IMG/VR virus record: IMGVR_UViG_3300028603_000001
Location: 96,001 to 160,000 of that record
DNA from: a virus
Lineage: Duplodnaviria > Caudoviricetes
Length of the DNA: 64,000 bases
Direction: 5' to 3' (one strand)
Part shown: positions 2-26,619 of the stretch, in pieces
How the letters are laid out: each line of letters starts with the position of its first letter
Position numbering within the stretch: position 1 is the first letter of the stretch
Position numbers and translations under genes: made by a program
The notes under the pieces: model-generated
Told to the model about the DNA's origin: nothing
Databases searched by the model: none
Seen by the model: the letters and a program-made list of their open reading frames with translations, nothing else

Positions 2-1015
2 AAACTAGCTGATATTCAAAGAGAAAAGTTATATTCAAAAGAACTTGGAAACGTTATACATCTAGCTAGAGAGATTGAAATTCCGCTTTTACCTGTTATA
101 GGTGAAATGGAATCAGCCGGAATGGAAGTAGACCAAGAATATGGAAAACTTTTATCTGCAAAATACAATACACAATTAGAAGAAGTAGATTCTGAGATAA
201 GCGTTGAATTAGAAAAATTAAAGCCTATGATTGATGCTTGGAGATTAACTCCAGATGCTAATTTCAGACCTATTATTGGAAGAACAAAAACAATAAACAA
301 GATTCAATATAAATATTATAAAGGATCTAACCGTGATGGTGATGAACCTTATTGGTATGAAGCTAAAACATCTCGAAAATTATCTGATGCTGAAGCATAT
401 AATCTAAATTTAGTAGCTACAGAGCAGAAATCAAAATCTGAACAGTTAATAGATCCCATTAATTTAGGATCACCGACACAGTTAGCTATATTATTCTATG
501 ATATCTTGGGAGCACCAACAGTCAGCAAAAAATCTCCAAGAGGAACAGGTGAGATGGAGTTAATTGCTATTTCTAAAAAAATAGATAATCCTATCTGTAA
601 ATTAGTTATAAAAAGAAGAGAATTAGTAAAACTTATATCAACGTATATCGACGTTATCCCAGAATTGGCTAAAAGGTGGCCTGATGGTAGAGTTAGAACA
701 CATTTTAATCCTTATGGTGCTGCAACAGGTAGATTAAGTTCAAGTGATCCGATTAACTTCCAAAATATACCAGCGCATAATAAAGAAGTAAGGATGCTTT
801 TCTGCTCTTCAAATAAACAGGAAGACATACCTATTACTAGTAATCAGATAATTGTTAAGAAGTTTACAGAAGTTAACACATCAGAAGGATTTGTTTTCGC
901 TGAAGATTTAAAAACAGGCGAGTATTTAATCTTAGACAATGATGATGGAACAACTGAAGCAATTAAGATAATAGATATTAAAACAGAAGGATTATTTACA
1001 ACAATAATTATTTAA
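2..1015 (+). CDS. polA: DNA polymerase family A, N-terminal fragment (5' end outside window), ending in a degenerate Hint-like tail
   Basis: Frame is open from base 2. PolA motifs NLGSPTQLAILFY, ATGRLSSSDPINFQNIP and RMLF. The ORF stops 70 codons after RMLF, before motif A. Confidence 0.93.
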   Translation, partial: KLADIQREKLYSKELGNVIHLAREIEIPLLPVIGEMESAGMEVDQEYGKLLSAKYNTQLEEVDSEISVELEKLKPMIDAWRLTPDANFRPIIGRTKTINKIQYKYYKGSNRDGDEPYWYEAKTSRKLSDAEAYNLNLVATEQKSKSEQLIDPINLGSPTQLAILFYDILGAPTVSKKSPRGTGEMELIAISKKIDNPICKLVIKRRELVKLISTYIDVIPELAKRWPDGRVRTHFNPYGAATGRLSSSDPINFQNIPAHNKEVRMLFCSSNKQEDIPITSNQIIVKKFTEVNTSEGFVFAEDLKTGEYLILDNDDGTTEAIKIIDIKTEGLFTTIII

Positions 1016-1105: not shown

Positions 1106-2017
1106 ATGTATGGGTATATCTATAAAACAATCAACATGATTGATGAAAAAGTTTATATTGGAAAACATACTAATGAATATGTTCGTAAAAATAATTGTAT
1201 TGATCCTAAATATTTTGGATCAGGAAAGGTTATTACTAATGCTATAGCAAAATATGGAGTAGATAAATTCAAATGTGAGATTCTTGAGTGGTGCGATTCA
1301 TTAGAAAATTTAAACAACAGAGAGAAATATTGGATTAATTATTATATGACTAATTATCCTACTACATGTTACAACTTAGCTGAAGGTGGGTCGGGGGGTA
1401 ACAATTTAAAATATAAAACCGAAAAAGAAAAATTAGAAATATTTGATCGCATTAGAAAATCAATAAATACTTATTATCAAACAGATGCTTTTAAAAATGC
1501 TAGAAAAGAGTTGCTCAATAAACCAGAATATCATCAGCGCTTAAGTGATGGTATGAAGGCCGCTAGAGCTAATACTAATAGCAAATATCATACAGATGAA
1601 TATCGACAGAAGAAATCAGAAGCTATTAAAAAGCAATGGTCAAATACGAATAGTAAATATAATAGTCAAGAATATCGTGAGCTGCTTAAGAAAAGAAATT
1701 CTGAAAAATGGGCTGAATTGAGTACTGAAAAGCTTGAAAAATTTAAAGAAAAGAAGCGACAAGAAGCTCTTAAGCGTTGGAAGAACCCAGATCATAGAGA
1801 ACTTATAAAAAAAGCAAAAGCAAAATGTATAATTATATATAACGACTCTGGTGATGAAATTATATTTGATTCTATTGGTGATTGTAACCGAACATTAAAT
1901 ATAGATTCTAGATATTTAATTAAAACAGGTGGTTATATTAAAACAAAAAAATATAAAGGTTGGCGGATAGATTACTATTGTCCAACAAAGATAGGAGGTG
2001 GTAAAGATGATTCTTGA
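1106..2017 (+). mobile_element. Free-standing GIY-YIG homing endonuclease inside the split polA locus
   Basis: N-terminal YGYIYKTIN...VYIGKH, REKYWI and YNLAEGG; basic helical C-terminus; SD AAGGAG. Confidence 0.9.
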
Positions 2018-2096
2018 AAAAAGTAATTCTAAAAAATTACGCACTAAAACTGGGTACAAGATAATTGGCTCAGATTATAGTGGTCAAGAACCGTAA
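2007..2096 (+). CDS. polA: polA middle fragment (29 aa, MILEKSNSKKLRTKTGYKIIGSDYSGQEP) carrying the first half of motif A
   Basis: Not in the ORF track. AGGAGGT SD at 1993-1999, ATG at 2007. Encodes GYKIIGSDYSGQEP with the catalytic Asp of motif A, then TAA. Confidence 0.85.
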   Translation: MILEKSNSKKLRTKTGYKIIGSDYSGQEP

Positions 2097-2101
2097 GGTT
2101 G

Positions 2102-3259
2102 CCTAGACTTACCGCATTTTACTCGCAAGACCAGAATATGATAAAAGCTTATGAGGAAGGAAAAGACTTATACGCTGTTATTGCATCAATGTCTTTTGAT
2201 AAACCCTATGAAGAATGTCTAGAATTCTACCCTGAAGGAACTGAAATTATTCATGAGGGAAAAAAAATAATTACTGGAAACAAAACACACCAAAATAAAG
2301 CAGGTAAAGAAAGAAGAAATTTCGCAAAGAGTATCTTGCTCGGCTTGCTCTACGGACGTGGAGCAGCATCTATTGCTGAACAAATTAAAAAATCAAGAGA
2401 AGAAGCACAAGAGATTATTGATAAATTCTTCGCAGCTTTTCCAGCTGTTAAAAATTGGATTGATAAAACAATTGAAGATGCTCATAAATATGGTTATGTT
2501 GAAGATATAGCAGGTAGACGCAGAAGATTACCTGATATACAATTACCGCAATATACTGTTGAATTTTTAGATAAAAAGAAAACAGGAACGCTATTTAATC
2601 CATTATTAGAATGTGATGATAAGATTGATGAAGCTTCAAATAAGTTAATTAAAAAATATCAAGAAAAATGTTCAAATATTAAATATGCTAGAGATTATGA
2701 AAATCTAAAAGCTGAAGCATTAAAAGAAAAAATAGTTATACATAATAATACTGGTTTTATTGCTCAAGCTGAACGTCAAGCGGTTAATAGCCGCGTTCAG
2801 GGTGGAGCTGCGTCATTAACTAAAACAGCTTTAATCAACATCCATAATGATCAAAAGCTAAGAGATATGGGAGCGTATCTAATAAATACAGTTCACGATG
2901 AAATCTTAATAGAAGCTCCTGATAAATATGCAAAAGAAGCTGCTGAACGCTTAACAGAGATAATGATAAATTCAGCTAAAAAATATGTTCCTAATGTTCC
3001 AATGAGTTGCGATGCATATATAACGAATTCATGGTATTTAGATGAGTTTGCTGTAACGGTTAGATCTGAATTTAAAAAATTAATTAGCGGAGATCCAGAT
3101 GAAAATGTATATCCTATGGACCCAATGGACGCTTTTGAATATATGTGCAAATTAAGAAAAGAATCAACTAGAAGTCAATTATATGAATTAGTAGGTAAAT
3201 TACTACCGAGAGTTCCTGAAAATGTTGATACCTCATACGTATCATTAACGGAAGATTAA
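2102..3259 (+). CDS. polA: polA C-terminal fragment (rest of motif A, motifs B and C)
   Basis: Begins PRLTAFYSQD. Motif B RNFAKSILLGLLYG, ERQAVNSRVQG, motif C VHDE. The TTG at 2099 has no properly spaced SD. Confidence 0.93.
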   Translation, partial: PRLTAFYSQDQNMIKAYEEGKDLYAVIASMSFDKPYEECLEFYPEGTEIIHEGKKIITGNKTHQNKAGKERRNFAKSILLGLLYGRGAASIAEQIKKSREEAQEIIDKFFAAFPAVKNWIDKTIEDAHKYGYVEDIAGRRRRLPDIQLPQYTVEFLDKKKTGTLFNPLLECDDKIDEASNKLIKKYQEKCSNIKYARDYENLKAEALKEKIVIHNNTGFIAQAERQAVNSRVQGGAASLTKTALINIHNDQKLRDMGAYLINTVHDEILIEAPDKYAKEAAERLTEIMINSAKKYVPNVPMSCDAYITNSWYLDEFAVTVRSEFKKLISGDPDENVYPMDPMDAFEYMCKLRKESTRSQLYELVGKLLPRVPENVDTSYVSLTED

Positions 3260-3319: not shown

Positions 3320-3910
3320 ATGAAAAAAGGATTAACTTTAGAGGAAGCTTTTAAGGCTTTGAGTGGTAGAGGTAAAGTTACTGAAAGCGAAAAAAAGTTG
3401 AAAGAAGAGTTTGATGATTTTCCAAAACTTATAGACTTAGCAAAAGGTGATGTTTTTACAGCGTATTTTGGAAATCATGAAAGTTGTGATTTTTCATATG
3501 ATTCAAAAAAAGATACTTTAATACAGAAATATTATGACCCAGCTGATACTTTTAAATTTAAAAATATTAAAACACAAACAGATTTTGAGAAAGTTGTTAA
3601 AGATGAGTTAGGTGATGGTAAGATAACTTGGGAAAAAAAAGTAAGAGAAAGTGCTGCTACTGAAGTTAAAATTCCAGAACCTTATAATAAATATTATCAA
3701 GTAGCTGAAGTTGATGGTGGTTATAAAGTTGGTGACCAAATTGAAGGTTATGACATACGCATTCTTGCATATCTTGACGCTAAACCTGAATATGAAGATA
3801 TATTAAAAGAACCATTTGCAGTATTAACTGATGATGAAGATTATCCAGTTTGTGTAATTGTAGGTAGAAGACTTTTTAATGTTTCTATTAGAGATTTACC
3901 TGAAGAATAA
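3320..3910 (+). CDS. Hypothetical acidic protein, possible internal virion protein
   Basis: SD AAGGAG, preceded by GCTAAATTA. LEE/VTES/LKEE/VRES motifs recall prohead-protease cleavage sites. Confidence 0.5.
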   Translation: MKKGLTLEEAFKALSGRGKVTESEKKLKEEFDDFPKLIDLAKGDVFTAYFGNHESCDFSYDSKKDTLIQKYYDPADTFKFKNIKTQTDFEKVVKDELGDGKITWEKKVRESAATEVKIPEPYNKYYQVAEVDGGYKVGDQIEGYDIRILAYLDAKPEYEDILKEPFAVLTDDEDYPVCVIVGRRLFNVSIRDLPEE

Positions 3911-4210: not shown

Positions 4211-4993
4211 ATGAATAAAATTAAACAAGCATTAAAAAAATCATTAACCTCAACTAGAAATATAAGAACACTATCAATTTTCTTGGGGTTAGTTTCTGTC
4301 TATTGTGTTATTGTTGTTCTTTACAATATTTTCGAATATAAATTCTTTGGGTTCACAGTATTAGAAAACATAAAAGTTCTTGGTGAACCAGTAATGATTG
4401 GAATGGGCGCTGGAACGTTAATTTCATGGATATCGTTCTTAATAATGGATGTTGTCACTGAAGTTTGGGGTAAAAAAACAGCCATTAAGATATTCACATT
4501 TGCAATGATTATTAGTATCACAACATCATTCTTTGGAATGGCTATAGCAAAAATAGGTGAACCATCTTATGGAGATGCTATTGAAAATATTTTTGGGAGT
4601 CATCCTAGAGTAACGATTGCTTCAGCATTTGCATTCTGGGTAGGAAGTTATGTTAACACATTGATAATGCATGTTATGAAAACACGAGCTGAAGATAAAG
4701 GAAAAGCAAAGAACAAGAAATTATTTGCTTTTAGAGCAACAACATCGACGTTACTTGGTCAAGCTGTTGATAATGCATTATTCCAAATAATTGGATTAGC
4801 ACCATTCGGAGTTGGTTTCTGGTTAGCGTCTCCATTTGGGTGGACATGGGGAATGGTAGTTGGTTCAATCATTGTTGGAACAATTTTAGAATTAGCTATT
4901 GAAGCAGTTCTAGTTCCATTCATAACTATTCCTCTATCTAACAAGTTGATCGCTAAAAAAGAAGCTGAAGAAGCAGAATTAGTTGCAGCTTAA
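4211..4993 (+). CDS. yhhQ: VUT/YhhQ (DUF165) queuosine-precursor transporter
   Basis: Multiple TM helices; motifs SFLIMDVVTEVWGKK, RVTIASAFAFWVGSYVN and RATTSTLLGQAVDN. Confidence 0.85.
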   Translation: MNKIKQALKKSLTSTRNIRTLSIFLGLVSVYCVIVVLYNIFEYKFFGFTVLENIKVLGEPVMIGMGAGTLISWISFLIMDVVTEVWGKKTAIKIFTFAMIISITTSFFGMAIAKIGEPSYGDAIENIFGSHPRVTIASAFAFWVGSYVNTLIMHVMKTRAEDKGKAKNKKLFAFRATTSTLLGQAVDNALFQIIGLAPFGVGFWLASPFGWTWGMVVGSIIVGTILELAIEAVLVPFITIPLSNKLIAKKEAEEAELVAA

Positions 4994-4995
4994 AA

Positions 4996-5661
4996 ATGAA
5001 AATTTTAATCACAGGTGCTAGTAACGGAATCGGTCTAGCAACAGCAAAATTATTTTTAGATCGAGGTTATGATGTAGTAGGATTAGACTTAGTTTCTAGT
5101 CCTCTACAAAACCTTAATTATGAACATTATATTTGCGATGTTTCTGAAAAAGATCAGCTACCAGACATTGATGATGTAAATATTTTATTTGTTAACGCTG
5201 GTTTTCAGAATACAGATGACGACATAAAAAACAATTTGTATTCAGCAATATATACTGTTGAAAAATATGGATTACAGAGCTCAATAAAATCTATATTATT
5301 TAACGCTTCAGTATCAGCTCACACAGGATTTGAATTTACTGAATATGTAGCAAGTAAAGCTGGTATGTTAGGTTTAATGAAAAATATAGCTGTTAAAGTT
5401 GCTAAATATGGTGCAACTTGTAATAGCTTAAGTTGTGGTGGTGTTTTAACCGATTTAAATCAACCTGTAATTGAAGATAAACAATTATGGGAAGAAATTA
5501 TGCAAGTCACACCGCTAAAGAAATGGGCAACAGCTGAAGAAGTTGCTGAATGGGTTTGGATGTTTACAGTCATTAATAAATCATGCACAGGACAAGATTT
5601 AATTATCGACAATGGAGAAAAAGATCTTAATAATAACTTTAAATGGCCTAACTACGAATAA
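4996..5661 (+). CDS. Short-chain dehydrogenase/reductase (SDR)
   Basis: ITGASNGIG Rossmann motif, NAG, catalytic YVASK, C-terminal TGQDLIIDNG. Starts 2 nt after the transporter stop. Confidence 0.9.
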   Translation: MKILITGASNGIGLATAKLFLDRGYDVVGLDLVSSPLQNLNYEHYICDVSEKDQLPDIDDVNILFVNAGFQNTDDDIKNNLYSAIYTVEKYGLQSSIKSILFNASVSAHTGFEFTEYVASKAGMLGLMKNIAVKVAKYGATCNSLSCGGVLTDLNQPVIEDKQLWEEIMQVTPLKKWATAEEVAEWVWMFTVINKSCTGQDLIIDNGEKDLNNNFKWPNYE

Positions 5662-20989: not shown

Positions 20990-22636
20990 ATAAAAACATT
21001 ATATAATTTTAAAAAATTTGTAGATGAAATTCTTGCAGATAATAGTAGAAATTATAAAATATCTGTACTTGAAAAATATAAAGATGATGAAGATATTAAA
21101 TATTATTTAGATTTTATTTTCAATCCTTTTATTACTACTGGAATATCAGATAAAAAATTAAACAGATTAACTGAAACAGATTACACAACAAAGTTAAATA
21201 CTATTAAAGATATTTTAGATTATTCTAAAACACATAATACAGGTAGTGATAAAGATTTATCAATAATATTTAGTAATCGAGATACTTTATTTGAAGATTT
21301 TGATCCTAAATCATTAGTTGACATTGAATATTTTAGAGATAAATTATTTGGTAATTTAAAAGTCCCTAAACAATTTTTTGAATTCACTGATGATGCAGCT
21401 GGATTTAGTGGAGGTTCTATATTATCAAGTAGATGTGATATTGAAGATAAAACAGTTAGATTAAATAAACTTAAATCGTTACTGGGTGATGCTATAGGTA
21501 ATCCAGAAGTTATTAGTTATATTCAACAATATATTGATGGGTTATTAGCAGAAAAAGAAAGAAAGCAAGAACAAGATTTTCAAGATTTAGATGCATCGCT
21601 ATATAATTTATTTAATAAAATTTTAATTAAAAATTTGCAACTAGGTGTTGATGTAAAAACTATAAATAAAGTAATTCCTAATTTAATACCGACATTTAAT
21701 GTTATGTTAGCAAATAAATATTTTGATGATGTAAAATTCGTAGAAGGAAAAGAATTTGCTTTAACTACTAAAATTGATGGTGGACGTATTGTTGCAATTA
21801 AGAAAAATGGCGATGTTAAATTCTATACTCGCTCTGGTCAATTATACGAAGGTCTAGTTGATTTAGAAGAAGAAATGAAATTATATATGCCTGATAACAT
21901 TATGTTAGATGGGGAAATTACTTTATTAAATGATTATGAAGTATTATATGATTTAAAATATAATGAACCCTGTATTGGTCATAAATTAACATCAAAAGAG
22001 CAATATAAAGAAACTATGAAAATCACTAGAAAAGATGGTGAAAAACATGGTGTTAAAATGTTAGTGTTTGATGGAATGTCTGTTGAAGATTTTGAAAATC
22101 AAACTAATAGTGTTCCATATATCAACAGAAGGGGTAAGCTTGAAGAGTTTTGGAACCATGCGGAAAACTGTGGACATAAAATGATTTACTTTGAATTACT
22201 TCCTATTCTGTATCGAGGAACCGACTCATCTGAAATCACTAAATGGCTCAACTACAGCATTGAACATGGTGAAGAAGGCGTTATGATCAACATATGTGAT
22301 GCTCCTTATGAGTTTAAGCGAACTAAAAACTTATTAAAAGTTAAAAAGATGGATACATTAGATTTACGTGTCATAGATTTAGAATGCGGGACAAATGCAA
22401 ATAGCGACAGACTAGGAGCTTTCATTTGTGAATATAAAGATGGTAATATTGTAAAAGTTGGAACTGGTATTTCCCAAGAGCTGCGAATTGAAATATGGAA
22501 CAATAAAAAAGACTGGTTAAATACTATTATTGAAGTACAATTTTTTGAAGAGACTGAAAATGCTAACGGTGGAAAATCACTTAGATTCCCGGTATATAAA
22601 GGTAGACGATTAGATAAAAATATTCCAGATTATTAA
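20990..22636 (+). CDS. lig: ATP-dependent DNA ligase, probable ATA start
   Basis: KIDGGR, LDGEI, FD, EGVM, LLKVKK and SLRFP motifs. Frame is open from ATA 20990 (SD GGGGGTGA) with a ligase-type N-terminus. Confidence 0.9.
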   Translation: MKTLYNFKKFVDEILADNSRNYKISVLEKYKDDEDIKYYLDFIFNPFITTGISDKKLNRLTETDYTTKLNTIKDILDYSKTHNTGSDKDLSIIFSNRDTLFEDFDPKSLVDIEYFRDKLFGNLKVPKQFFEFTDDAAGFSGGSILSSRCDIEDKTVRLNKLKSLLGDAIGNPEVISYIQQYIDGLLAEKERKQEQDFQDLDASLYNLFNKILIKNLQLGVDVKTINKVIPNLIPTFNVMLANKYFDDVKFVEGKEFALTTKIDGGRIVAIKKNGDVKFYTRSGQLYEGLVDLEEEMKLYMPDNIMLDGEITLLNDYEVLYDLKYNEPCIGHKLTSKEQYKETMKITRKDGEKHGVKMLVFDGMSVEDFENQTNSVPYINRRGKLEEFWNHAENCGHKMIYFELLPILYRGTDSSEITKWLNYSIEHGEEGVMINICDAPYEFKRTKNLLKVKKMDTLDLRVIDLECGTNANSDRLGAFICEYKDGNIVKVGTGISQELRIEIWNNKKDWLNTIIEVQFFEETENANGGKSLRFPVYKGRRLDKNIPDY

Positions 22637-24321: not shown

Positions 24322-26619
24322 ATGAGAGTATTATTATTAATGAGAGGTGCTCCTGGTTGTGGTAAAACGACATGGATTAAAAACCATAATTTAGAAGATT
24401 ATACGTTATCACCAGATGAATTAAGAATTAAATGTAGTTCTCTAGAATTACAACCAACAGGTGAATTAAAAGTTTCACAAAATCAAGAAAATGAAAGTGC
24501 TGTTTGGAGTATTTTATTTAAACTTCTAGAACATAGAATGTCTCGTGGAGAGTTTACTGTTATAGACGCCACATGTTCTAAAACGAAAGATATTAAACAA
24601 TATAAAGAATTAGCTGATCAATATAGATATAGAATGTATATAGTTGATTTCACAAAAGTATCTTTAGAAACATGCCTAAAACAAAATAAAATGAGACCAG
24701 AACATAAATGGGTTCCAGAGAGAGCTATTGAAAATATCTATGCTAGATTTGCAACACAACAAATTCCCAGTGGTGTAACCATTATTCAACCAGATGATTT
24801 TGATGCAGTATTAGAAAAACCATTTGATGTTTCTGAATATAAAAGAATAGTATTTATTGGAGATATTCATGGATGTTATGATACACTAATGCAATATCCA
24901 GATTTTAAAAATGGTTTAAGAGATGATACAGAATATATTTTCTTAGGAGATTATATTGATAGAGGCAATCAAAATGCAGAAGTGTTGCATTGGTTATTCT
25001 CTATTATGAATAAACCAAATGTATGTTTATTAGAAGGAAATCATGAGAAGTGGATCAGGGATTATGGAAATAGTGTTCCTGCTAAATCAAGGGAGTTTGA
25101 ACATAAAACAAAACAGCAATTAATGAGCGGTGGTTTTGATGAAAAAATGGCAAGGATGTTATACAGGAAAGTAAGACAATTCTCTCATATTACATGGAAT
25201 GGAATTGAAATTTTAGCTTGCCACGCAGGAATCCCACATTTACAACATAATCTATTGTATGTTCCATCTATTGATTTTATTCAAGGTGTTGGAAAATATG
25301 CTGATTATTTAGCAGTTGCTGAAACATGGATGGGCAAAACAAACTTAAATCAATATCTAATTCATGGTCATAGAAATGTTGAAGGTGACGAAACACAAAT
25401 TGCCGATAGAGTATTCAATTTAGAAGGTAGAGTTGAATTTGGAGGTAAGTTAAGAATTGTTGAATTATCAATGGAATATTTAATGCCTGAATATGGTTAT
25501 ACTGCTGATGGAGGAAGAATCCCAATAGGTGTTATCACAACTCCAAGCTGGAATGTTGTTGAGTTAGATGATTGCCAACCAATTACAAAAGAGTTAAATA
25601 CAGAGGAACGAAAAGTTGAAACAGTAGCAGATGCAATTACATATTTACAAAATAATAAATATGTTCAAGAAAAAGCACTAGGCGATGGAATATCTTCATT
25701 TAATTTTACTAGAGAAGCTTTTTTTAAAGGTAACTGGAATAGACAGACTGTTCTAGCTAGAGGTTTATTTATAGACACGAAGAATAAAAAAATTATGGCT
25801 AGATCATATAAAAAGTTCTTTAATATTAATGAAGTTAGAGAAACTGAATTAGTATCACTAAGAGAAAAATTGCAATTTCCTGTAACTGCATACGTTAAAG
25901 AAAATGGATTTTTAGCTATTGTTTCTTATGATTATATTAACGATGATTTATTTATAGCTTCTAAATCAACCAATAAAGGTCCTTATGTGGAGTATATTAA
26001 AAAAGCTATTGAACCTTATCGAGAAAGGTTATTAGAATACTTTAGAGAATTATATAAGAGAGCTAACGACATTAACGGTCAAATAGCTACATTTGTATTT
26101 GAATGTATAGATGTTGAAAATGACCCACATATAATCAAGTACAATGAAAGTAAATTAATTCTATTAGATGTTATATTAAATAGCTTAGATTATAAAGCAC
26201 TTAATTACAAAGAATTAAACCTTGTTGCAAAATTAATACCAGATTGTCCTGTAAAAGAAAAAGCTTTTGAAATAAAAGACTGGGATGCGTTTAGAGACCT
26301 TTATAATGAAATTCAATCAGAAGAGTATCAATATAATGGAAAATATATTGAAGGATTTGTATTTGTTGACGAAGCTGGTTTTATGACTAAGTGTAAAACA
26401 GGTTATTATAATCAATGGAAGAAATTAAGGGGAATTACAGATCAAACTTTAAGACGTGGATATATCACTAAAACTGGTATGCTAACAACTTCTTTAGAAA
26501 ATATGTATTATGGATTTTTAAAAGACTTATATAAAAATGATTATAATAAAGAAACAAAAATTTATCCATATAAAACAGATATTATATCATTAAGAGAAAA
26601 GTTCTTAAAGGAGAATTAA
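24322..26619 (+). CDS. Polynucleotide kinase-phosphatase-RNA ligase fusion (RNA repair)
   Basis: P-loop GAPGCGKT; metallophosphoesterase GDIHG, GDYIDRG, GNHE and HGH; Rnl1-like KFFN, KENG, EGFV and KCK. Confidence 0.9.
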   Translation: MRVLLLMRGAPGCGKTTWIKNHNLEDYTLSPDELRIKCSSLELQPTGELKVSQNQENESAVWSILFKLLEHRMSRGEFTVIDATCSKTKDIKQYKELADQYRYRMYIVDFTKVSLETCLKQNKMRPEHKWVPERAIENIYARFATQQIPSGVTIIQPDDFDAVLEKPFDVSEYKRIVFIGDIHGCYDTLMQYPDFKNGLRDDTEYIFLGDYIDRGNQNAEVLHWLFSIMNKPNVCLLEGNHEKWIRDYGNSVPAKSREFEHKTKQQLMSGGFDEKMARMLYRKVRQFSHITWNGIEILACHAGIPHLQHNLLYVPSIDFIQGVGKYADYLAVAETWMGKTNLNQYLIHGHRNVEGDETQIADRVFNLEGRVEFGGKLRIVELSMEYLMPEYGYTADGGRIPIGVITTPSWNVVELDDCQPITKELNTEERKVETVADAITYLQNNKYVQEKALGDGISSFNFTREAFFKGNWNRQTVLARGLFIDTKNKKIMARSYKKFFNINEVRETELVSLREKLQFPVTAYVKENGFLAIVSYDYINDDLFIASKSTNKGPYVEYIKKAIEPYRERLLEYFRELYKRANDINGQIATFVFECIDVENDPHIIKYNESKLILLDVILNSLDYKALNYKELNLVAKLIPDCPVKEKAFEIKDWDAFRDLYNEIQSEEYQYNGKYIEGFVFVDEAGFMTKCKTGYYNQWKKLRGITDQTLRRGYITKTGMLTTSLENMYYGFLKDLYKNDYNKETKIYPYKTDIISLREKFLKEN

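Follow-up and report, generated by a model that had tools for sequence, protein, structure and literature searches.

A stop-containing 11-nt insert in motif A of a split phage DNA polymerase gene: a probable translational stop-hop at the edge of a homing-endonuclease cassette

A split polA gene and its cassette

We analysed the DNA polymerase gene polA of a Caudoviricetes phage in a window of 64,000 nucleotides (positions 96,001-160,000 of the IMG/VR virus record IMGVR_UViG_3300028603_000001; positions below are in the numbering of this window unless another locus is named, and the features lie on its (+) strand). The gene is split into two parts, and the catalytic motif A in its second part is broken again by 11 nt that include a stop codon. 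The initial annotation, made from the letters alone, had read CAA GAA CCG TAA GGT TG CCT AGA CTT at 2085-2110, which agrees with the sequence of the window. It had also proposed that skipping 11 nt rebuilds motif A, and removal of 11 nt from CCG TAA GGTTG CCT (2091-2104) indeed yields DYSGQEPRLTAFYSQD, a string found with identical spacing in the uninterrupted relatives L011, L009, and L036. The upstream frame ends with KIIGSDYSGQEP and the stop TAA at 2094-2096. The downstream frame, PRLTAFYSQD..., runs from 2102 for 385 codons to a stop at 3257-3259 and is -1 relative to the upstream frame. When the DNA was aligned with the three closest relatives (L011, L002, and L012; 78-87% amino-acid identity), the 11 nt stood out as a clean insertion. 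The features of the locus are as follows.

2-1015 (+): PolA N-fragment, a 589-codon open frame entering from upstream of the window, with the stop TAA at 1013-1015 and a C-terminal extension of ~70 residues
797-2101 (+): inserted cassette, without counterpart in uninterrupted polA (blastn against the contiguous L036 and L021)
1106-2017 (+): free-standing GIY-YIG homing endonuclease gene, 303 aa (PHROG 314 'homing endonuclease', E=4e-35)
1993-2009 (+): Shine-Dalgarno (SD) sequence AGGAGGTG (1993-2000), 6-nt spacer, and start codon ATG of the C-fragment (2007-2009)
2007-2093 (+): first open reading frame (ORF) of the polA C-fragment, 29 codons (MILEKSNSKKLRTKTGYKIIGSDYSGQEP), with the catalytic Asp and the Glu of motif A (from the ORF list and alignment with relatives)
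2089-2100 (+): AACC-GTAA-GGTT hairpin with a 4-bp stem, covering the take-off codon and the stop (present by folding, not beyond chance)
2091-2093 (+): proposed take-off codon CCG (Pro), the final sense codon ahead of the stop (by the rule from 23 loci)
2094-2101 (+): gap proposed to be untranslated, TAA (2094-2096) and GGTTG (2097-2101); all 16 distinct gap types start with a stop
2102-2104 (+): proposed landing codon CCT (Pro), the first codon of renewed homology to uninterrupted polA
2105-3259 (+): second ORF of the C-fragment, RLTAFYSQD..., 384 codons and TAA (3257-3259), resuming at AGA (Arg) and carrying motifs B and C

The Pfam DNA_pol_A profile matched the N-fragment at its positions 19-150 and the C-fragment at its positions 165-380 (E=1.7e-49). 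Homology to the contiguous genes L036 and L021 stops at 796 and starts again at 2101/2102, that is, at the landing codon, indicating that the break is the right (3') edge of a mobile cassette. Between these points the cassette holds the extension that ends the N-fragment, the endonuclease gene, the SD, the extension that opens the C-fragment together with a substitute copy of motif A's first half, and the gap with its stop. The endonuclease product also matched Pfam SegE_GIY-YIG and GIY-YIG slightly below the cut-off. The last 11 nt of its ORF are shared, out of frame, with the beginning of the C-fragment ORF. Since an Rfam search of 700-2500 returned no intron or self-splicing RNA match even at E<=10, the endonuclease gene was regarded as free-standing. 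Neither the cassette nor the 29-codon ORF was reported in the initial annotation; the cassette explains the presence of the insert. A scan for promoters and terminators gave nothing above the shuffled expectation.

Cassettes of similar layout were found in related genes. The cassette of L018 (1613-2986) places 1,374 nt where the near-identical contiguous L005/L006 have 35 nt, and homology restarts at the landing codon. In L055, L091, and L016, the cassettes of which are laid out like that of the window, homology to intact genes likewise restarts at the landing codon or directly beyond it. The endonuclease varies among them. GIY-YIG enzymes are present in the window, L055, and L091 (L055 and L091 are 51% identical; the window enzyme is 32% identical to that of L091), HNH_3 in L089, and PHROG 655 proteins in L018 and L045, and the endonuclease is absent from L002, L016, and L019. 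A segment downstream of polA in L011 (1392-1478) is 77% identical to the start region of the window endonuclease (1082-1167), which suggests a second endonuclease copy elsewhere. Two split genes that have no gap carry other proteins between their halves: a 578-aa ORF with helix-turn-helix repeats and a weak REase_MTES_1575 match in L012 (1601-3337), and a 606-aa DUF7487/Mom-like protein in L102 (1612-3432).

A split intein was considered as a means of joining the two halves and was rejected, because no Pfam Hint or intein match was obtained in the N-fragment or its extension and the C-fragment extension of ~14 residues has no His-Asn. The N-fragment extension (797-1015) is beta-rich and that of the C-fragment (2007-2051) is basic; neither belongs to a Pfam family. 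The contiguous polA of L037 carries a similar insertion (3380-3500) that is kept in one chain. The polA N-fragment of L045 (53-343) appears to contain an intein, its ORF ending with ...FIANGFICHN, followed by TGRFSSSNPNL. A structured, intron-like sequence lies before the LYGRGAAS codons in L004 (3256-3435; identical to L014) and marks a further site of interruption in the C-fragment. Immediately downstream of polA, the window encodes a membrane protein (4211-4993) and a short-chain dehydrogenase-like protein (4996-5661).

Short inserts in motif A of related polymerase genes

We gathered polA loci from IMG/VR, JGI metagenomes, and GTDB genomes and classified 142 unique loci. Megablast against GenBank phages gave no near relative, and tblastn gave relatives at <=45% identity only. 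The loci fell into the following classes.

Contiguous, uninterrupted polA: ~106 of 142 loci
Intron-like RNA ending exactly at DYS/QQEP: 3 of 142 loci (in L042, with Rfam group I intron matches next to the site)
Split as in the window, with motif A unbroken: 8 of 142 loci
Split, motif A broken by a short insert: 23 of 142 loci (window included), with 16 distinct sequences

Gaps are confined to split genes, being present in 23 of the 31 split loci and in none of the 106 contiguous ones (Fisher P=1e-19). The hops that would restore the motif are 4, 6, 7, 8, 9, 10, 11, 15, and 16 nt long, and all three frames are represented. Examples are listed below in the order take-off codon, stop, rest of the gap (lower case), landing codon, and next codon where given.

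Window: CCG, TAA ggttg, CCT, AGA; hop 11
L018: TCC, TAA atggg, TCA, GCG; hop 11
L019: GAA, TAA ct, GAG, CCA; hop 8
L016: TCT, TAA cgt, TCT, GGA; hop 9, in frame
L045: TCG, TAG ggaagtgaa, TCT, CAG; hop 15, in frame
L177: TCT, TAG, TCA, CAG; hop 6, in frame
L091 type: TCT, TAG g, TCA; hop 7
L180: AGT, T, AGT, the landing codon overlapping the stop; hop 4
L147: TCT, TAG ttaaatggag, TCA; hop 16

The inserts follow a simple rule. The stop stands directly after the last sense codon in 23/23 loci and 16/16 types (null ~0.086 per locus from local composition; P=9e-18 for all 16), and the first two bases of the codon that ends the insert are those of the take-off codon in 15/16 types (null 0.082; P=7e-16), values that overstate the independence of the types if these are kin through the cassette. 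By locus, the last three bases of the insert belong to the same codon box as the take-off codon in 22 of 23, the matched pairs being TCN with TCN, AGT with AGT, GAA with GAG, and CCG with CCT. TAG, the rarest stop in the contigs (16% of genomic use), opens 8 of the 16 gap types (P=0.0016). The initial annotation had suggested that related polA genes be aligned in search of a conserved insert of this kind with a hairpin; inserts opening with a stop were recovered by this comparison in 23 loci, with matched codons in 22, and a conserved hairpin was not supported.

A trivial source of the codon match was considered, as a cassette copy and a native copy of the codon for one amino acid could match without any selection. 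Among ungapped alleles the Ser of motif A is encoded by AGY in 36%, yet no TCN take-off codon is paired with an AGY landing codon, and the sole AGT take-off codon lands on AGT. Thus, plain duplication of a codon does not explain the matching of boxes.

All 23 gapped loci have an extended SD (GGAGGTGAT-like) and a start codon 17-29 codons ahead of the break. The peptide encoded ahead of the take-off codon is basic in gapped alleles (MKKSIRVRK.Y...-like; ...SKKLRTKTGYK... in the window). In a tree of the polymerase C-fragments the gapped alleles were scattered, 10 of them requiring 9 changes, and each grouped most closely with intact genes. The 7-nt type TCT TAG G TCA occurs in seven assemblies, namely six viral contigs from different IMG/VR datasets and one metagenome-assembled genome, and the C-fragments of the six viral contigs are merely 45-85% identical. 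This recurrence indicates that such inserts are not errors of assembly and did not arise by recent accident.

The same evidence bears on whether the insert of the window is a sequencing or assembly artefact of a metagenome-assembled genome. The 11 nt come from a single assembly, and the exact 20-mer of the gap was not found in other viral contigs. However, errors do not yield features exactly like those of 22 other independently assembled inserts, and identical gap types occur in unrelated samples. Moreover, the gap sequences are in neither parental form and so cannot be created by chimeric assembly. We consider an artefact extremely improbable.

Motif A is also a target of introns. L042 (2848-3462) has two Rfam group I intron matches, the second of which ends ~40 nt before the QQEP codons. 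A structured RNA ending at DYS/QQEP is present in L081, L101, L196, and a prophage of Ruminococcus callidus ATCC 27760 (L199); in L081, L101, and L199, the three of these that were searched, its score fell short of the Rfam gathering threshold. A group I intron at the break in the window was rejected, because no Rfam fold was found by the search that does detect one in L042, and 11 nt is too short.

Proposed decoding of the insert

The arrangement suggests that the insert is decoded by a programmed translational stop-hop at the edge of the homing-endonuclease cassette, a reading to which we assign a probability of roughly 0.8 from the comparison of sequences. The initial annotation had named a hop of 11 nt on peptidyl-tRNA(Pro), with CCG for take-off and CCT for landing, as one of two possibilities, and the stop-start, same-box inserts of related polA genes favour it. 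The 11 nt would be the 3' edge of an endonuclease cassette that invaded and split the sole DNA polymerase gene of the phage. Translation of the C-fragment would start at its own strong SD and ATG (2007), and after 29 codons peptidyl-tRNA(Pro) would occupy CCG (2091-2093) with UAA in the A site. Instead of termination, the tRNA would unpair, the mRNA would slide by 11 nt, and the tRNA would re-pair at CCU (2102-2104), so that decoding restarts at AGA (2105). The predicted product is one chain of 413 residues with motif A intact (DYSGQEPRLTAFYSQD) and the junction peptide IIGSDYSGQEPR. We infer that the ribosome does the joining, and does so efficiently enough for replication. A Glu-Pro sequence ahead of a stop is a slow-terminating context in E. 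coli and would favour take-off here. The phage encodes 12 tRNA genes at the genome ends (29-659 and 179711-180748 in the numbering of the whole genome, G000), among them tRNA-Pro(UGG), two tRNA-Met(CAT), and tRNA-Ser(GCU); the tRNA-Pro(UGG) could read both CCG and CCU. Suppression of the stop by a tRNA or an altered code was rejected, because no suppressor is present among the 12 phage tRNAs and readthrough of TAA stays in a non-polymerase frame.

The resume frame of the window is -1 and is open from 2081, as a conventional -1 frameshift near CCG would require. Such a shift would give DYSGQEP-VRLP-RLTA, with the junction IIGSDYSGQEPVR..., and would thus add four residues to a motif the spacing of which is invariant in all uninterrupted alleles examined. 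No slippery X XXY YYZ heptamer or CUU UGA-type site lies at 2081-2096. Applied to the relatives, an explanation of this kind would call for -1 shifts, +1 shifts, and readthrough, and would place 2-5 extra residues between the Asp and the Glu. Because the hops fall in all three frames, no single direction of frameshifting suffices, and the in-frame cases need the stop to be skipped. A frameshift in the window is therefore very unlikely.

The comparison indicates that the gapped genes are kept functional. Every gapped allele has an intact ORF beyond its gap (296-385 codons), and the ratio of non-synonymous to synonymous substitution rates (dN/dS) of gapped alleles is 0.04-0.22, equal to that between ungapped genes; comparison of the window with L002, L011, and L012 gave 0.09-0.12. 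Judged by these ratios, the downstream ORFs are under purifying selection. The phage genome is complete (180.8 kb, with direct terminal repeats), and neither PolB nor DnaE was found in it, leaving the PolA of the window as the only polymerase. PolB and DnaE were likewise not found in five other gap-bearing genomes (57-74 kb).

These results bear on the possibility that the gapped gene is broken, either as an inactivating scar of the cassette or as a three-piece enzyme made of the N-fragment, a 29-residue peptide with the catalytic Asp, and a C-fragment reinitiated at TTG 2099. The TTG (2099-2101) is in the resume frame 2 nt past the stop, and the break is located at a recombination junction. 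The TTG is, however, peculiar to the window. L002, L016, L018, and L019 have no ATG, GTG, or TTG in the resume frame, and reinitiation cannot make the C-fragment there. The 23 gapped alleles retain long intact downstream ORFs with dN/dS ~0.1, and the gapped gene is the only polymerase gene in six complete or near-complete genomes. Furthermore, a scar would not always open with a stop and close with a matching codon, and it seems implausible that a free peptide of 17-29 residues supplies the catalytic Asp. It is thus unlikely that the gene is broken or works in three pieces.

The other possibility named in the initial annotation was that a tiny RNA element is excised and the ends religated, the phage encoding a PNKP/RNA ligase. 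In this reading the 11 nt would leave the mRNA as a micro-intron, or the mRNA would be cut and rejoined around them by the T4 Rnl1-type RNA ligase and a kinase-phosphatase of the phage. Exact removal of the insert restores the motif, and an Rnl1-type ligase is indeed encoded at 25756-26409 of the window (G000 121756-122409; Pfam RNA_lig_T4_1, E=1.5e-38). This domain sits in a 775-codon open frame, and a weaker RNA_ligase (Rnl2-like) match lies at 21749-22345. Excision, however, needs neither a stop at the first position nor a matched landing codon, both of which are near-universal, and it leaves the codon match unexplained. No Rnl1- or Rnl2-type ligase was found in the five other gap-bearing genomes, four of which are >=95% complete. 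Rfam detected no intron at the locus, and inserts of 4-7 nt are too short for a recognisable RNA element. Splicing of mRNA in such a way is not known from phages, which also counts against excision. On these grounds the religation proposal fared poorly, and we regard removal from the mRNA as highly improbable.

Several points weigh against a stop-hop. First, the possible kinship of the 16 gap types lessens the force of the statistics; if they share ancestry, the stop and the codon match stayed constant while the intervening gap diverged. Second, L002 is the sole exception to box matching, its TCC take-off codon facing the imperfect landing codon ACT, which is not a Ser codon. It is telling that the closest relatives of L002 carry AGT at this position, since ACT pairs with a UCN-reading anticodon at 2/3 positions and AGT at 1/3. 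Third, the CCG/CCT match in the window is by itself weak evidence, because Pro has one box and a duplicated native Pro codon matches automatically; the codon-match argument rests on the family and not on the window. Fourth, no conserved take-off hairpin emerged, as the folding energy over 15 gap types was no better than that of randomised gaps (P=0.11). The hairpin pointed out in the initial annotation is present, but it does not exceed chance, since random gaps of equal length folded as well or better in 11-12% of cases, and a strong 6-bp stem at the gap was seen in L019 only. Fifth, the basic N-terminal peptide, a candidate nascent-peptide signal, occurs likewise in gapless split genes. Sixth, the window insert is known from the single assembly mentioned above. 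Finally, unaided stop-hops in E. coli constructs are described as no more than low-level events (bioRxiv 10.1101/2024.12.09.627546).

Relation to known bypass systems and significance

A 2016 review (Atkins et al., PMC5009743) names T4 gene 60 and Magnusiomyces mitochondria as cases of bypass, alongside unconfirmed candidates. According to this review, shorter counterparts in nature were long presumed to exist without being found, and no natural in-frame stop-hop was known. Homologues of gene 60 were located in topoisomerase genes only (Manning & Atkins 2022, bioRxiv 10.1101/2022.08.31.505936). We searched the literature for gaps in polA and found no description.

The layout of the polA locus resembles that of T4 gene 60 and its endonuclease MobA in many respects. 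In both, a free-standing homing endonuclease gene interrupts a gene essential for replication (PMC5009743; bioRxiv 10.1101/2022.08.31.505936), extensions are found at the C-terminus of the upstream half and at the N-terminus of the downstream half, and the endonuclease ORF overlaps the downstream start out of frame (by 11 nt here and by 8-32 nt in MobA elements). The target region is present as a replacement copy, after which comes a coding gap extending to the landing codon. The stop comes directly after the take-off codon, and the landing codon matches the take-off codon. In both, endonuclease families have been swapped or lost and the gap kept. By analogy with the gene 60 gap, which protects against MobA in T4, we infer that the insert may shield the phage's own gene from its endonuclease. 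The two systems, compared here by layout, also differ. The host gene is that of a topoisomerase large subunit in T4 and polA, at motif A, here. The gap is 47 nt there (20 nt in one clade), whereas it is 8 nt here (hop 11) and 1-13 nt in the relatives. Take-off occurs at codon 46 there and at codons 17-29 here, so that the nascent chain is too short for a KKYK-like signal 25-30 residues from the P site. No take-off stem-loop is supported here, and the polA take-off varies within the motif (after Ser, Glu, or Pro).

Other systems share parts of this arrangement. Unprogrammed stop-hops in E. coli constructs (Weiss et al. 1987; O'Connor et al. 1989, via PMC5009743) have the geometry of some relatives (TCT TAG TCA, hop 6), but they were synthetic and of low efficiency, whereas the inserts described here lie in the sole polymerase gene of natural phages and recur in many lineages. 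The byps of Magnusiomyces capitatus (PMC5009743) are, like the polA inserts, short insertions in essential genes that are neutralised by translation, with a poorly decoded codon in the A site and take-off and landing codons that match, at times at only 2/3 positions as in L002. In contrast to the polA inserts, byps are GC-rich mobile elements of 27-55 nt at 81 sites, are read by mitochondrial ribosomes, present an unassigned sense codon instead of a stop in the A site, and have no link to homing endonucleases. A gap in a phage gene that is tied to the rare UUA codon of Streptomyces is similar in being a short coding gap with a proposed role for an SD-like sequence. It differs in that its proposed role is regulatory, no endonuclease cassette is involved, and it lies outside a catalytic motif.

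Taking the family as a whole, we think it likely, with somewhat less confidence than for the decoding of the window insert, that bacterial ribosomes can efficiently hop 4-16 nt over a stop when provided with a strong SD, a basic nascent peptide of ~19 residues, and a matched landing codon, and that cassettes have repeatedly exploited this hop to disrupt their own target in the catalytic motif of a phage polymerase. The polA inserts would then constitute a second, independent bypass family, much more widespread than that of T4 gene 60 and present in about a fifth of one clade of gut and rumen phage polA genes.

The study of bypassing has long been based on one well-studied bacterial case, T4 gene 60 with its topoisomerase homologues. 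If the stop-hop is confirmed, the polA inserts would offer dozens of natural variants in gap length, frame, take-off codon, and stop, from which the minimal requirements of a ribosome hop may be deduced. Confirmation would also be a warning for annotation, since such polymerase genes are now called truncated or broken ORFs. It would likewise be evidence that the pairing of an endonuclease with a bypass is a general means by which selfish cassettes persist within catalytic motifs.

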